Source: a virus
Taxonomy: Duplodnaviria > Heunggongvirae > Uroviricota > Caudoviricetes
Length of the DNA: 12,475 nucleotides
Direction: 5' to 3' (one strand)
IMG/VR virus record: IMGVR_UViG_2923286960_000002
Numbering within the stretch: the first letter of the stretch is position 1; each line of letters starts with the position of its first letter. The notes beneath the pieces are model-generated. The model was not told where the DNA came from. It was given only the letters and a program-made list of their open reading frames with translations, and did no database searches. The position numbers were made by a program, and so were the translations under genes. Positions 1,254-12,475 of the stretch are shown here, in pieces.

Positions 1254-1313
1254 GCGGACAACGTGAAACAACGAGACACAACGACGAACAACAAGGAACA
1301 AAATGGAACAACG
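1254..1313. repeat. Six tandem 10-bp units with ACAAC(G) core, one helical turn apart
   Basis: ggacaACG tgaaACAACG agacACAACG acgaACAACA aggaACAAAA tggaACAACG, directly after the int stop codon. Confidence 0.6.
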
Positions 1314-1836: not shown

Positions 1837-3129
1837 ATGAATACTGGATATTCTCCCGAACAAGGGCGGGGCTTCGTTCGTCCTGAAAAACAGAATCTGC
1901 AAAATTTTGCCGAAAGTATTCCGGTTATTTCCGGCCTTACTGGCGGGAGTGAAACCAATATTGTTAACGCCAGAGCGTTGCAGATGTTTGATGATAAAAA
2001 GGGAGTAAATTTAACTTACACCCCTGACGGCAATCAGAATATGAGCATTATCTCTGAGTCAGGTTTCTACAAACTAATAAAAACAAAAAGCGCCCCGTTG
2101 CCGGAGCGCCTTTGTGAACAATTAACCTACTGCGCAAAAAATGAATCTGAGCAGTGGGATTATATCAACCATGTGGAGAAGCGCCACAATTGCCGAATAA
2201 CGGGCAAAACAAAGGCCACCCGCTACGGTGGCCCCTCGACACAAGCTACACGTTATCCCCAACGCATGAGCATTGCCAACAATGCCACATTTGCGGCTGG
2301 TGGGCAATGCAATCAGTCTGGTTCAGTTCGTTGCCATACCTGCAATGAGCGCTTTTCCCTGTACTCTTTAAGGAATTGCTCAAGGGCAAAAGCACATGGC
2401 GCGAATCTTTCTGATTCATGCTCTATCTTTCTGCGCCGTCTTTTCCGTGCCGGTGATAATGTTTTGGTCAATTCTTTATCGGTCATTGTGTTGTCCTGCA
2501 TAGCAATGCGCCGTAATACCTTACACCACGGCGCTGATGGTGATTACTCTGGTTCTTTGGCCTTGCGGCGCTGGCGATATTCAACTTCTCGTTTTAATGC
2601 CGCAGTAACAAATTGCCCCGTACTTTCGCCAGGCATTTTTACCGCCTCAACATTGTTCATAACTTCATGCGGAACCCTTGCCGCAACGGTTTGTGATTTT
2701 GCGTTTACTGCTTTTGTCGCCATGTGGTGTACCCCTCATAAAAAACAAATGCAGTATGCAGGAAAAAAAATAAGTGTTCAACACTTGACGTGTTTAACAC
2801 CTGGGTTTAAATTGGTGTTCAACACCTTGTTGGCGCAAGGTGCAGAAACGACGAAACCCGGCAGTGCGCTAACACTAACCGGGCTTCTAACCACCAACGA
2901 TAGCGAAAGTATCGAGGTAGCTATGCGAAATCATACCACACACCCGCAAGGGCGGGACTCGCACAACCTGAATAAATACATCTGGCGTTTTATCGCCCTG
3001 AGCACGGCACAACCGCGCGTGATTACCATTGAGGCCACCAGCGAACAGGAAGCACGCCAGCAATCTCCGGCTGGCTGCGTGATGGTATTCGCTGCCCGTA
3101 TTCGTCAGGAGGTGTGCCATGTGCAATAA
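1837..3129 (+). CDS. Bro-N-like domain ORF (antirepressor-like N-terminus); 3' two-thirds of the frame doubtful, possibly degraded
   Basis: N-terminal ~110 aa resemble the Bro-N domain (NLQNF..., DDKKGV..TPDGNQNMSIISESGFYKLIKTKSAP). From about aa 120 the frame is Cys/Ser/Thr/Arg-rich and poor in Asp/Glu/Lys, and it is antisense to a well-supported RHH gene. No clear SD before the ATG. Confidence 0.4.
   Translation: MNTGYSPEQGRGFVRPEKQNLQNFAESIPVISGLTGGSETNIVNARALQMFDDKKGVNLTYTPDGNQNMSIISESGFYKLIKTKSAPLPERLCEQLTYCAKNESEQWDYINHVEKRHNCRITGKTKATRYGGPSTQATRYPQRMSIANNATFAAGGQCNQSGSVRCHTCNERFSLYSLRNCSRAKAHGANLSDSCSIFLRRLFRAGDNVLVNSLSVIVLSCIAMRRNTLHHGADGDYSGSLALRRWRYSTSRFNAAVTNCPVLSPGIFTASTLFITSCGTLAATVCDFAFTAFVAMWCTPHKKQMQYAGKKISVQHLTCLTPGFKLVFNTLLAQGAETTKPGSALTLTGLLTTNDSESIEVAMRNHTTHPQGRDSHNLNKYIWRFIALSTAQPRVITIEATSEQEARQQSPAGCVMVFAARIRQEVCHVQ
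2313..2501 (-). CDS. Hypothetical small basic protein, second gene of the leftward RHH operon
   Basis: 62 aa, highly charged (KRRRRK), 42 nt downstream of the RHH gene on the same strand; no recognisable fold by eye. Confidence 0.3.
   Translation of the reverse strand: MQDNTMTDKELTKTLSPARKRRRRKIEHESERFAPCAFALEQFLKEYREKRSLQVWQRTEPD
2544..2723 (-). CDS. Ribbon-helix-helix (Arc/CopG/MetJ-like) DNA-binding protein, putative island repressor
   Basis: 59 aa ORF below the track's length cutoff: MATKAVNAKSQTVAARVPHEVMNNVEAVKMPGESTGQFVTAALKREVEYRQRRKAKEPE. Beta-strand/helix/G-x-S-T helix pattern of RHH proteins; GAGGGG SD ~9 nt upstream of ATG; three palindromic operators immediately upstream. Confidence 0.55.
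   Translation of the reverse strand: MATKAVNAKSQTVAARVPHEVMNNVEAVKMPGESTGQFVTAALKREVEYRQRRKAKEPE
2753..2826. promoter_or_regulatory. Divergent promoter/operator switch with three GTGTT-N-AACAC palindromes
   Basis: O1 2774-2784 gtgttcaacac, O2 2790-2800 gtgtttaacac, O3 2815-2825 gtgttcaacac. Rightward promoter TTGACG (2785-2790), 17 nt spacer, TAAATT (2808-2813). Leftward promoter TTGAAC (complement of 2776-2781), 17 nt, CATACT (complement of 2753-2758). O1 overlaps the leftward -35, O2 lies in the rightward spacer, O3 just after the rightward -10. Confidence 0.55.
2923..3129 (+). CDS. Hypothetical 68 aa protein; alternative first gene of the rightward operon (same frame as the 3' end of the 1837 ORF)
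   Basis: ATG at 2923 preceded by GAGGT; lies ~100 nt downstream of the rightward promoter; its stop overlaps the next start (ATGTGCAATAA). Confidence 0.3.
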   Translation: MRNHTTHPQGRDSHNLNKYIWRFIALSTAQPRVITIEATSEQEARQQSPAGCVMVFAARIRQEVCHVQ

Positions 3130-5866: not shown

Positions 5867-5880
5867 TTTTTTGCAATGGC

Positions 5881-6104
5881 TGTCTACCCTGTCTACCTGA
5901 GTAAAGAAAAATACATTTAATTCAGTATATTAACTTAGGTAGACAGCCTTTTTTCACTGTCTACCTACTATCTACCCTCTCTACCTGATTTTACCTGAAT
6001 CAGACAGGGAGGTAGATACGGGGTAGATAGTGGATAAAAGCACTCTACCCCGCTGAAAGCCGCGCCATTACTGGCATGAGAGCCAGTAAGGTAGATAAGG
6101 TAGA
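5881..6104. repeat. Replication origin: about 11 iterons with TCTACC core in both orientations flanking an AT-rich spacer
   Basis: tgTCTACCc (5883), tgTCTACCt (5893), GGTAGAca (5939), TCTACC (5960, 5971, 5980), GGTAGA (6011, 6022), TCTACC (6044), GGTAGA (6090, 6099); AT-rich 5905-5935. Directly downstream of the replication gene, as in SaPI/PICI origins. Confidence 0.75.
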
Positions 6105-6154
6105 CAAGGGGAGGCACAACTCAAAACTTTTTAAACGAGGGGGTAAAAATAAAA

Positions 6155-6412
6155 ATGCGCACATCAGGAAAACTTAATAATCAGAAGAAGCAGCATAACC
6201 GCGCCATTGACCTTACAGAGCACTGGCTGAGAGTGGCGATAAAAATCATCGACCGCAACACGGGGGAAGGATACGCGAAAGCACATCCCGACCTGATAAG
6301 CGCATTCATGACCACGGCGGCGGCAAACTTTGCCACGCTGACAGAACGGGAGATTGCCGAAGCGGAACAGGTAACAACCATCAACGTTAAAACCGGAGAG
6401 GTGGAATCATGA
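6155..6412 (+). CDS. Hypothetical protein (85 aa)
   Basis: Strong SD GAGGGGG upstream; stop overlaps the SSB-like start (ATGA at 6409-6412). Confidence 0.5.
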   Translation: MRTSGKLNNQKKQHNRAIDLTEHWLRVAIKIIDRNTGEGYAKAHPDLISAFMTTAAANFATLTEREIAEAEQVTTINVKTGEVES

Positions 6413-6831
6413 CAGCACAGATAGCAGCTTACGGGCGGCTGGTGGACGACCCGCAGGTAAAACAGACCAGCAAGGGCACACCAATGACGCTGGCACGTAT
6501 GGCGGTCCCCCTTCCGTGCAGCCAGGCAGATGACGGAACGGCGACGATGTGGTTATCCGTCCTGGCATTTGGCAGACAGGCCGAAGCACTGGAAAGGCAC
6601 CGCAAGGGTGAACTCCTGAGCGTGGCGGGTAACATGCAGATCAGCCAGTGGACTGGGCAGAACTGAGAAACGCGGCAGGGCTGGCAGGTTATCGCAGACA
6701 GTGTAATCAGTGCGCGAACGGCGCGACTGGGCGGCAAAAAAGGTCAACAGGGCCAGGCTACTGACGCGCTGAACAGGGCAAAACAACAGGCGGGGAATGA
6801 TGATCCGTACGGGGATAACATACCGTTTTAA
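6409..6831 (+). pseudogene. ssb: SSB-like OB-fold protein interrupted by a single in-frame TGA (6664-6666); nonsense mutation, readthrough or sequencing error
   Basis: N-terminal 85 aa align to the SSB OB fold (YGRLVDDPQVKQTSKG...WLSVLAFGRQAEALERHRKGELLSVAGNMQISQWTGQN). The same frame continues after the TGA for 54 codons and ends in the SSB acidic tip ...DDPYGDNIPF. The TGA sits where SSB has a conserved Gly codon. Confidence 0.7.
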
Positions 6832-8508: not shown

Positions 8509-8519
8509 CGGGGGATTCT

Positions 8520-8855
8520 ATGGACACTCCATACATTGAGTTATTTGCAGGCAGTCAGCAGGTCGCCACGACGCTGGTACATTTTGCCGCTGATGCTGGC
8601 GTTATTCAGGAATTTACCCCGCTGATGCTGGCGGACAATGGCGAGTTTAAGCCGTGGGATGGTCAGGAATCTGGCAAGGCTGTTTATCTGACTTCGTATC
8701 CTGTGGACACGTCAAAGCAGAAATCAGCACAGTGTTACAAGACGGGGATATTCAATATTGCCGCCGTTAACTGGCCTGAGAGCGTCGACACCGATGCGAA
8801 AAAATGCGCCGCCTTTGCGGGTTCCGGCGTATCCGTTCAGCCGCTGGCCCGATAA
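8520..8855 (+). CDS. Head decoration protein, lambda gpD-like
   Basis: 111 aa; TPLMLADNGEFKPWDG..., YKTGIFNIAAVNWPESVDTDAKKCAAFAGSGVSV parallels lambda gpD TPLMLDTSSRKLVAWDG..., YKSGTF.YEDVLWPEA..DETKKRTAFAGTAISIV. Confidence 0.85.
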   Translation: MDTPYIELFAGSQQVATTLVHFAADAGVIQEFTPLMLADNGEFKPWDGQESGKAVYLTSYPVDTSKQKSAQCYKTGIFNIAAVNWPESVDTDAKKCAAFAGSGVSVQPLAR

Positions 8856-9311: not shown

Positions 9312-9392
9312 ACGGGTCCTTTCCGGCATATGGACCCGTTACGGGGCGGCGACCTCGCGGGTTTTCGCTATTTATGACGTTTTTCCGTGAAG
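9311..9392 (+). other. Lambda-type cos site (cos1): cosQ/cosN plus a short cosB-like segment
   Basis: tacgggtcctttccgg...ccgttacg | GGGCGGCGACCT (9344-9355) CGCGGGTTTTCGCTATTTATGA matches the lambda right-end/left-end junction as recalled, with the 12-nt cohesive end identical; followed by an R3-like cgtttttccgtg. Lies ~90 bp upstream of the Nu1-like gene. Confidence 0.85.
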
Positions 9393-10079: not shown

Positions 10080-10150
10080 CTCATAAATAGCGAAAAACCG
10101 CGAGGTCGCCGCCCCGTAACGGGCCATAATTCCAGGAAGGACCCGACGAC
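10080..10150 (-). other. Second lambda-type cos site (cos2), inverted relative to cos1
   Basis: Reverse complement reads cgggtccttcctgg...ggcccgttacg GGGCGGCGACCT CGCGGTTTTTCGCTATTTATGAG (12-mer at complement of 10103-10114), near-identical to cos1 over ~45 bp. Confidence 0.8.
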
Positions 10151-10178: not shown

Positions 10179-10460
10179 ATGACAGAAGCCGAAATACTGC
10201 GATTAATCCGCCGCGTTGCCGGAATCAGCCAGCAGGCCGACGAACAGACCACGCAGCCGGACAGCGTGACCGCCGAAAATTATGTTCGTGTGGTTGCTGA
10301 GATGATTCGCCGTAATGGTATCCAGCTTAATGATGTGGATATGCGCAACATACGGATCCGCGTTCTTGAAATGCTGGCCTACAATCGCCGCGTGGCACTG
10401 TATCGGGAAACGGAGAAAATTACGTACCACTGGAAGAAGCCGGAGCGGTTGCGGCGGTAA
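10179..10460 (+). CDS. Hypothetical protein (93 aa)
   Basis: ATG preceded by GGGGG SD; charged, helical-looking composition; no family recognised by eye. Confidence 0.45.
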   Translation: MTEAEILRLIRRVAGISQQADEQTTQPDSVTAENYVRVVAEMIRRNGIQLNDVDMRNIRIRVLEMLAYNRRVALYRETEKITYHWKKPERLRR

Positions 10461-10628
10461 CTGGTTGATATTTTCGAAATTCGCCAGCGGCGAACATCGG
10501 GGAAACCAGCCTAACCCGTTGATATTTTCGGGAACCTCAAATTGAGGAGGTCGGAAACATAACCCGTCATATTCTGGATGCTGATAATTACCACGCAGCC
10601 CATTAAGGCCTAACCCGTTGATTCTTCC
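10458..10628. repeat. Four direct repeats with TAACCCGTTGAT-like core at ~50-bp spacing
   Basis: taactggttgatattttcg (10458), taacccgttgatattttcg (10512), taacccgtcatattctgg (10560), taacccgttgattcttcc (10611). Confidence 0.55.
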
Positions 10629-10633
10629 ACAAT

Positions 10634-10798
10634 CCCCCATTGGGGGAGGCTGGGCGGCCTGCTGTGGGCTTTTCCACCATTGGTGGAAAGGCGCACATCT
10701 GGATCATCATTACGGTGATCAAGGGTATGTAAAACCCACCAGCCTGATTGACATTTAACCGGAAAAAAGCCAGGTAGCCCCATTATGGGGATCCCCAT
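10634..10798. repeat. Cluster of short GC-rich palindromes
   Basis: CCCCCATTGGGGG (10634-10646), TTCCACCATTGGTGGAA (10672-10688), CCCCATTATGGGG (10778-10790), ATGGGGATCCCCAT (10785-10798). Confidence 0.4.
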
Positions 10799-11014
10799 AT
10801 CGACATTAACGCCCCTCATGAATTGGCGCGCTTCCCCCTGGAAAGATGACCCGCCTGTATATTTCTTGTGTCTATTTGTTCCACGTTGTTTCATACAGTG
10901 CAACGATCGGTGTAGTTAATGGTGTAGTCAATTTGCGATTTTTAGCACTTTTTGCAGTGCGAATCATTTAATTAAATCAATGGCTTGCCTTGATGTAGTG
11001 ATAAAAGGGCATAT

Positions 11015-12475
11015 TTATTCATCTTTCGGCGCAGAATGCTGGCGACCAAAAATCACCTCCATCCGCGCACCGCCCAGCATGCTCTCTCCGGCGACGATTT
11101 TACCCTCATATTGCTCGGTGATTTCGCGGGCTACCGCCAGCCCTACACCTTGCCCAGGGCGTAAAGTATCAACCCGTTGACCACGGTCGAAAATGACCTC
11201 TCGCTTGCTTAATGGAATACCGGGGCCATCATCCTCGACCACAATATAGAGATGCTCGTCGGTTTGCCTTGCAGAAATTTCGACAAACTCGAGGCAATAT
11301 TTACAGGCATTATCCAGCACGTTGCCCATCACCTCGACAAAATCGTTCTGCTCACCGACAAAGCTGATCTCTGGCGAAATATCGAGAGAGATATTGACCC
11401 CTTTGCGTTGATACACTTTGTTCAGCGCTGAGGTGAGATTGTCCAGCAGTGGGGCGACCGGATGCAGCTCGCGGCTGAGCAATGTCCCGCCGCGCATACT
11501 GGCACGATGCAGGTAGTAGCCAATTTGCTGTGAAATGCGGCTGATTTGCTCCAGCATTACCGGCTCAGCATCACTGACGCTCATCTTTTCACTACGCAGA
11601 GAACGCAGCGTACTTTGCAGCACCGCCAGTGGCGTTTTCAGACTATGGGTCAGGTCGGTGAGCGTCGTACGGTATTTGTCGTAACGTTCGCGTTCACTTT
11701 TTAACAATCGGTTCAGGTTTCGTACCAGACTGGTCAGTTCTCGCGTTGTGGCTGGATTGAGCAATTCGCGGTTATGTTCTTCCAGTTCGCGGACTTCTTT
11801 TGCCAGGGCTTCGATGGGGCGTAAACTCCACCAGGCGGCGACCCACAGCAGCGGGATCACTAACAGCAGATTGGCTGAGAGCACATAGATAAACCAGCTC
11901 CAGACCATATAGGAACTTTTTAGCTCCACCGGAATGGTATCCACCACCACAATGGTTAATTTTGGCATCCGCGATGTTGCCGGGTAGACGTTTACTGCCA
12001 CCGAGTGGGTCATCTCCGCGTCGTCATCATCTTCCCGCACTTCCTGCAACTGTTGCTGTATCGAATGATCTCCACTCAGCAAGAGGCTGGTATCGTTAAC
12101 ATCCGCTTCAATTTCATGAAAACCATTCGATTTCAGCCAGTCAGGCTGGATCATCTTCATCAGCCAGGGCACGTCACGTTGCGCCCATAAAAGCTGCCCG
12201 TTCTCATCATAAATTAGCGTCATGGTGGGGCTTTGCTTGTCGATATTTTCGGGTAACTCGACATGCAACTTATTGTTTTCCCACTTCGCAAGGGTATAGA
12301 ACAGATTGCTCTCGCCACGTAACAGCCGAAACGTAGTTTTATCGAAACTGACGCTATAACCGATCAGCGCGACCATTCCGTAGGCAAGCGAAAGCACCAG
12401 TACTACCGCTGCCGTTGCCAACAGAAAACGTACCCGCAGCGAGAGCGGGAAAAAAAGACGCAGTAATTTTTTCAT
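11015..12475 (-). CDS. phoQ: Sensor histidine kinase PhoQ (chromosomal, Escherichia/Shigella-type)
   Basis: 486 aa full-length ORF; N-terminus [33 protein letters not shown], periplasmic acidic patch [12 protein letters not shown]-box [12 protein letters not shown], and G-box/ATP-lid motifs DDGPGIP and GQGVGLAV. Window ends at its ATG. Confidence 0.95.

Follow-up and report, generated by a model that had tools for sequence, protein, structure and literature searches.

The window analyzed here, a stretch of 12,475 nucleotides, runs from the ATG of a tyrosine integrase gene (int) through an island of about 9.4 kb to phoQ. Its sequence matches E. coli B-2207 at 100% identity, and at the right end it has 99.5% identity to CFT073. 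The island is located between roxA and phoQ and, judged by its sequence, is a close variant and near-identical relative of EcCICFT073, an experimentally studied cos-type PICI. EcCICFT073 is a model Gram-negative PICI and is under engineering as a delivery vehicle. Experimental work on this element has been published (PMC6092414, PMC6739421). The island encodes an AlpA-type regulator, an Icd-like protein, a P4-type primase, rppA, major-capsid-like and decoration-like proteins, and a last gene of 93 codons. The integrase has an Arm-DNA-bind_3 domain (PF13356, residues 8-95, E = 9.5e-19) and a Phage_integrase domain. The last gene (window 10179-10460, stop 10458-10460) matches PHROG 1561 (function unknown); Rpp-type and capsid-forming PICIs at several att sites alike end with this conserved gene. 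No relative of its 93-aa product was found in Pfam, NCBIfam or PDB, and its AlphaFold model, all-helical with a mean pLDDT of 67.6, is too weak for a fold search. A search of the genome contigs with this protein returned one locus. A 97-aa ORF on the minus strand (10610-10903) has no PHROG match and is unannotated in RefSeq.

Other parts of the island also have features worth recording. In this strain the SSB gene (window 6409-6831; locus L001, 8010-8432) has an internal stop and carries a pseudogene annotation; the CFT073 copy is intact. A 430-aa ORF occupies window 1837-3129, where RefSeq has only a partial BRO-N pseudogene (approximately 2041-2548) and an opposite-strand gene of the ylcI/ynfO family. 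An Rfam match to the SymR antitoxin RNA, weak and below threshold (2850-2922, minus strand, 33.3 bits, E = 0.0038), falls in the BRO/Icd zone, and P4 CI-RNA/seqA-like immunity elements have been reported from such zones (PMC10111431). The replication-origin region (5880-6110), situated after the primase gene, contains numerous GGTAGA/TCTACC iterons, which run in both directions, together with a long imperfect inverted repeat; spurious mir-3927 Rfam matches came from this region.

Between the last annotated island gene (stop 10458-10460) and the phoQ stop codon (11015-11017) there is a non-coding gap of about 554 bp, longer than the 380 bp or so given in the initial annotation. By BLAST, similarity to most of 5426 complete E. 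coli genomes begins only at about window position 11007-11010, and the region has no match in approximately 4200 of them. The entire 10400-11100 stretch is present in just 50, which agrees with its description as island DNA. Since most genomes match only from about 11007 and 50 of 5426 carry the whole stretch, the region is not the native phoQ-downstream sequence of island-free genomes, an identity that had been named as the result that would speak against the annotation. Alignment to island-free strains, proposed as the way to find the exact junction, did locate it. Comparison of the left junction (L001; attL at 1421), the right junction (window) and the empty site (L002) gave an att identity block, GGGCATATTT, whose attR copy at 11007-11016 overlaps the phoQ stop codon and coincides with the BLAST boundary in about 5400 genomes. 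On these sequence comparisons, 11007-11016 is the true chromosome junction. The interval 10634-10932, where palindromes and a tandem 12-mer had been noted, is island DNA throughout, and the att core lies outside it, about 75 bp to the right. The suggestion that these repeats are themselves the att core region is thus contradicted, while the attachment-site reading survives for the tandem 12-mer as part of an attP arm. A search of a phage database with 10461-11010 found as its sole match a chance-like segment of 41 bp in the ant gene of phage SSU5.

The non-coding gap is rich in palindromes. In 10461-11006 there are seven perfect palindromes whose arms have 6 nt or more, against a mean of 0.75 expected, and none of 500 dinucleotide shuffles reached seven. 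Other 546-nt tiles of the window have 0-2, and the tile overlapping the region has 6. The four palindromes described initially are all present where they had been placed. Palindrome 1, TCCCCCATTGGGGGA (10633-10647), is part of a larger repeated module treated below. Palindrome 2, TTTCCACCATTGGTGGAAA (10671-10689), is extendable to a 12-bp stem (10668-10694) and is held in a strong hairpin/palindrome module, GGCTTTTCCACCATTGGTGGAAAGGC (10664-10696), which folds as DNA with -13.5 kcal/mol (z = -6.6); variants of this module in relatives include GCTTTTACCCCATTGGGGGAAAGG and GCTTTTCCGCCATTGGTGGAAAAGG. Palindrome 3, CCCCATTATGGGG (10778-10790), is poorly conserved, being perfect in this strain only; most relatives have CCCCGTTATGGGG or lack it. 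Palindrome 4, TATGGGGATCCCCATA (10784-10799), is part of a conserved palindrome of about 22 bp with a GATC center (family consensus CGATATGGGGATCCCCATATCG). A compensated variant, written CCCGATATGGTGATCACCATATCGGG or GGTGATCACC, occurs in islands with a different integrase, which suggests that it is a candidate operator for an unknown dimeric protein. Three further palindromes lie beyond the span first noted (10480-10494, 10535-10547 and 10966-10977).

To place these elements, we compared 43 islands that have the 93-aa last gene, obtained from complete E. coli genomes and from a pattern scan of IMG/VR. They include Rpp-type and capsid-forming PICIs at phoQ, tqsA, clpS and other sites. The 500-860 bp past the 93-aa gene are a mosaic of short palindromic modules, variable in number and order. 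The best-defined module has about 54 nt and is composed of a box, (GCGG/GGCC)TAACnnGTTGATwyTTyCG, followed by a palindrome with a 5-7-bp stem of variable sequence (examples are CCTCAAATTGAGG, TTCGCCAGCGGCGAA, CCCCCATTGGGGG, TTTCCACAGACTGTGGAA and CCTGCAATGCAGG). Three copies, all on the plus strand, were detected in the window with a covariance model, and they are distinct from the module at 10664-10696. Module 1 (10454-10507, 54.7 bits) has the box TAACTGGTTGATA at 10458-10470, whose TAA is the stop codon of the 93-aa gene, and the palindrome TTCGCCAGCGGCGAA at 10480-10494. Module 2 (10508-10561, 66.5 bits) has the box TAACCCGTTGATA at 10512-10524 and the palindrome CCTCAAATTGAGG at 10535-10547. 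Module 3 (10607-10660, 56.8 bits) has the box TAACCCGTTGATT at 10611-10623 and contains palindrome 1. The array usually starts at the stop of the 93-aa gene, and three islands have a terminator there instead.

The box is in each of these copies a perfect match to the IHF consensus, for which we used WATCAANNNNTTR, equivalently YAANNNNTTGATW. This consensus occurs 6 times in the window, where 0.57 matches are expected (0 of 200 shuffles); the module boxes account for three of these and a site near the att core for one. Another, TATCAACCCGTTG, lies inside the phoQ coding sequence (11167-11179) in the reverse orientation to the module box, and is probably due to chance. When 27 distinct modules are aligned, with hardly any gaps, the columns that never change are precisely those fixed by the IHF consensus, and the four N positions vary. 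Among 64 distinct modules the consensus is perfect in 48 (75%) and has at most one mismatch in 62, although the 75% figure is inflated because part of this sample was gathered with a pattern that contained the IHF box; in the BLAST-derived loci alone, about half of 24 distinct modules match perfectly by hand count. The stems covary. Double-sided changes were found in 7 of 7 pairs, with a score of 0.381 against 0.130 in shuffled data (0 of 500); slid controls score lower and the 64 distinct rows give the same outcome. Strong hits of the covariance model (at least 30 bits) are restricted to the 3' ends of islands, where they follow the conserved last gene and, in every case that could be checked, share its orientation; none was found elsewhere in the islands or in the flanking chromosome. 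The islands with strong hits span at least five different arm and att types.

The number of modules varies from 0 to about 8 between otherwise similar islands, so the array is no essential, precisely spaced component of an intasome, and the island may be able to do without it. Where similarity between islands breaks off, the breakpoints are clustered at the edges of modules. The idea of a recombination hotspot, raised in the initial annotation, is therefore supported in a limited sense only, that of breakpoints between islands at the boundaries of repeated modules. Two islands show other rearrangements. In L062 (about 1210-1263, with a tail offset of about 50) an IS3-family-like element, whose first ORF resembles an IS3-type orfA, is apparently inserted just 3' of the module 1 hairpin, which recalls the preference of some insertion sequences for REP hairpins. 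In L065, an island at the phoQ site, the box of the third module is fused straight to the att block and phoQ (8514-8578); the remaining array and the entire P arm including the 12-mers are deleted, and with this loss the island is probably immobilized.

The array might have no function at all, being neutral debris of repeated recombination and of quasi-palindrome correction in a dispensable spacer. Its highly variable copy number and order, the islands without modules and the loss of most of it from L065 are in keeping with this. Neutral drift, however, does not readily explain why the specified IHF positions stay invariant as the N positions change, why stem complementarity is kept through many differing sequences, or why the strong hits are found only after the conserved last gene in islands of at least five arm and att types. 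We consider this explanation improbable.

Since the region follows immediately on the last co-oriented gene, the palindromes could also act as RNA, either as stem-loops in the 3' UTR of the packaging operon (stabilizers or terminators, REP-like) or as parts of a small RNA. Covariation of the stems is as expected for RNA, and related islands have true terminators, hairpin plus T-run, among their modules. In this island the plus strand of 10455-10830 also folds better than shuffled sequences (z = -2.77) and the minus strand does not (z = -1.29). This comparison of both strands, called for in the initial annotation, favors RNA here, but the bias is not consistent, since the plus strand is the more stable one in only 20 of 31 islands (p = 0.26). 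An Rfam scan of the whole window found no family in the region, and the promoter and terminator signals of this island do not exceed those expected by chance. No intrinsic terminator, that is a GC-rich hairpin with an immediate T-run, was found in 10461-11006; the lone match, at 10446-10463, is at chance level. Double changes from one Watson-Crick pair to another number 66 (counted as cells), against only 4 G-U intermediates, and most of the palindromes are symmetric through the center, where a hairpin loop cannot pair. An RNA function is for these reasons unlikely, and the structured small RNA proposed initially finds no support. A DNA-level role of the modules is favored by the same features: the missing Rfam, promoter and terminator signals, the lack of strand bias, the scarcity of G-U pairs and the symmetry of the centers.

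The remaining repeat of the region, the tandem 12-mer, was found as described, at 10909-10920 and 10921-10932, with one mismatch between the copies. This doublet, GGTGTAGTTAAT GGTGTAGTCAAT (10909-10932, plus strand), has a counterpart at the other end of the island, GGTGTAGTTAAT GGTGTAGTTAAT (L001, 1556-1579), which is co-oriented with it and lies upstream of int. The left doublet ends about 22 bp before the int start and is within a direct repeat of about 65 bp common to the island ends. In the 24.7 kb of L001 scanned, copies that are exact or have one mismatch occur only at both island ends. When attP is reconstructed, the doublet edges fall at -79 (upstream) and +131 (downstream) from the center of the identity block; in a tqsA island they are at about -76 and +133 by hand count. 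Helper-embedded PICIs (HE-PICIs) have a doubled motif, tgTGTATTGCantgTGTATTGCa, at -81 +/- 2 and +132 +/- 2 (PMC10111431), so the 12-mer geometry matches that published for a sister clade of PICI integrases. Two of our loci (L025 and L026) have the published TGTATTGC motif in the corresponding position, following this last gene as well.

The doublet also changes together with the integrase. On both arms it is of the GTTAAT/GTCAAT type in phoQ- and clpS-site islands and of the GTCACT/GTCATT type in two independent tqsA-site islands, while elsewhere the P arms of the two groups have about 90% identity. The phoQ and tqsA integrases diverge most in the first 100 residues, with 81% identity there and 95% in the catalytic part. 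The integrase thus has an arm-binding domain, and the repeat is present on both sides outside the core, at fixed position, and covaries with the integrase. Given this geometry and the concordant change on both arms with integrase and att, the arm-type site of this clade of integrases is most likely the 12-mer pair, and we infer that the integrase binds to it. At the right ends of islands with other integrases, ATGTTAAC occurs four times at the equivalent place (L072 and L080), and GCGGGTTAT and ATAACCCGC occur in three copies each (L029 and L078); these are likely the arm-type sites of those islands.

Instead of the integrase, AlpA could bind the 12-mers, in the role of excisionase or activator, or a different protein of the island could do so, for instance to regulate int. 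The left copy abuts the int start, and AlpA or an unknown protein was named as the alternative for the analogous motif (PMC10111431). However, AlpA is nearly identical in phoQ and tqsA islands and yet their 12-mers differ, the divergence being situated in the N-terminal domain of the integrase, and the four half-sites, which flank the crossover on either side at fixed distances, suit an integrase tetramer. A search for an int promoter overlapping the left 12-mers found no consensus promoter. Binding by AlpA or another protein seems to us quite unlikely, and the integrase is preferred as the ligand of the 12-mers.

Two other features of the P arm are consistent with an attachment site. A perfect IHF consensus, AATCAATGGCTTG (10975-10987, plus strand), is found 36 bp from the attP center and is conserved in most phoQ- and tqsA-type islands. 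Beside the 12-mer pair there are two repeats with a 10-bp phase, TTGTTCC/TTGTTTC (10876-10892, plus strand), and the same TTGTTYC arrangement adjoins the doublet upstream of int. These repeats may be candidate sites for AlpA as recombination directionality factor or activator. TTGTTYC is not enriched overall (14 matches against 8.9 expected), and only its clustering is notable. P4 crr-like replication iterons were considered for these repeats and rejected, as the iterons of the island origin (5880-6110) are of the GGTAGA type and dissimilar. In the spacer between int and alpA there are 5-6 GAACAA repeats, which are inverted TTGTTYC, with a phase of about 10 bp (window 1255-1312), and beside them a perfect IHF consensus, TAACCATTTGATT (1336-1348). 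The GAACAA repeats may be AlpA sites for autoactivation and excision.

A packaging function is extremely improbable for the region. The only hint of a cos-like site is GGGCGGCC at 10652-10663, which matches lambda cosN in 9 of 12 bases, but 13 such matches occur where 10 are expected by chance, and a lambda-type cos site, with cosN flanked by cosQ and cosB, is not present there. Exact copies of lambda cosN (GGGCGGCGACCT) with the published flanks are located elsewhere, cos1 at 9344-9355 on the plus strand, upstream of rppA, and cos2 at 10103-10114 on the minus strand. Deletion of both cos1 and cos2 abolishes EcCICFT073 transfer (PMC6092414, PMC6739421). A cos site at 10652 was accordingly rejected.

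Taken as a whole, the region is probably the non-coding right end of an EcCICFT073-type PICI, made up of the P arm of attP and a variable array of IHF boxes and palindromes. The P arm would comprise the core-proximal 280 bp or so (about 10729-11006). There the tyrosine integrase of the island, which is of the heterobivalent kind, would bind the doubled 12-mer through its N-terminal arm-binding domain. After excision, the P-arm copies and the co-oriented P'-arm copies would flank the crossover at fixed distances, so that an integrase tetramer could bridge arms and core, with the IHF site 36 bp from the core supplying the bend and the adjacent phased TTGTTYC repeats possibly binding AlpA. The distal part (10454-10700) would be a variable array of PICI-specific modules in which symmetry is kept and palindrome sequence varies, behaving as an island-private analogue of BIME-1/RIB.

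The function of the array we infer with less confidence. Our best guess is that IHF may bind the modules at the end of the packaging operon and so form a punctuation or insulator between this operon and attP/int; in an excised circle or concatemer all genes point towards int. Because they are repeated, the modules may also be substrates for homologous exchange, which would shuffle integration modules among satellites. The proposal that the private, co-oriented modules of E. coli PICIs, Rpp-type and capsid-forming alike, are both an IHF-bound array insulating the packaging operon and a recombination joint for swapping integration modules is tentative, and we regard it as possible but doubtful. 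The absence of a canonical terminator from the array of this island weakens the punctuation idea. A protein of the AlpA family is an antiterminator in Pseudomonas (PMC7969949, PMC9371919), which for the AlpA of PICIs is a lead only.

In the literature searched, which on IHF, palindromes or arm-type sites of PICIs gave only PMC10111431, we found no description of the attP architecture and 3' non-coding end of EcCICFT073, nor of the IHF-box/palindrome array. The array appears to be undescribed and island-specific. The 12-mer pair is an additional case of an attP motif of a kind already described, and the island and its att/cos biology were already known. The map of putative arm-type doublets indicates the DNA that has to be retained if integration and excision are to work, and it extends a motif geometry, so far from one integrase clade, to the phoQ, tqsA and clpS clades. 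Should the insulator and exchange proposal be true, satellites would have in this array their own equivalent of the chromosomal BIME elements, with a role in the satellite life cycle. If bound by IHF, the modules would be a rare case of a mobile element with its own BIME-like repeats and would help to explain the reassortment of packaging and integration modules among satellites. An inert array would leave nothing more than ordinary att-site anatomy.

Several known systems resemble parts of this region. In lambda attP the integrase has arm-type sites P1, P2 and P'1-3, and IHF has sites H1, H2 and H'. As in integrases of the heterobivalent lambda type, there is an N-terminal arm-binding domain, non-core repeats on both arms and an IHF consensus by the core. 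In contrast to lambda, there are here just two doublets of putative arm sites, both in direct orientation, and the island has no canonical excisionase gene, AlpA being the candidate. The closest likeness is with the doubled attP motif of HE-PICIs (tgTGTATTGCan, two tandem copies; PMC10111431), which has in common the tandem doublet with a 12-nt period, one copy ending about 80 bp upstream of the center of attP and the other, co-oriented, starting about 131 bp downstream, the gTGTA core, the type of element (PICI) and the integrase family. The sequence differs (GGTGTAGTYAAT), and here the doublet is found in phoQ-, tqsA- and clpS-site PICIs, where it tracks the integrase allele. Like the region described here, cos1 and cos2 of EcCICFT073 are functional non-coding elements in the right third of the island, but they lie at 9344 and 10103 and, as exact lambda cosN, are unrelated to it in sequence. 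As far as the summary in PMC3333891 (citing Boccard and Prentki 1993) goes, BIME-1/RIB (RIP) elements consist of REP palindromes together with a linker that binds IHF, and they are found at the 3' ends of transcription units. By that summary, the array is similar in having an IHF consensus and short GC-rich palindromes, clustered and variable in copy number, at the 3' end of an operon. The observation that the palindromes are unlike E. coli REP was correct, as they have no REP sequence similarity, and membership in REP/BIME-1/RIB was rejected. Compared with the elements so summarized, the modules lack the REP (Y/Z) consensus and are confined to PICI ends rather than dispersed genome-wide, all that can be checked are co-oriented instead of alternating around an IHF linker, and their stem sequence differs between copies.
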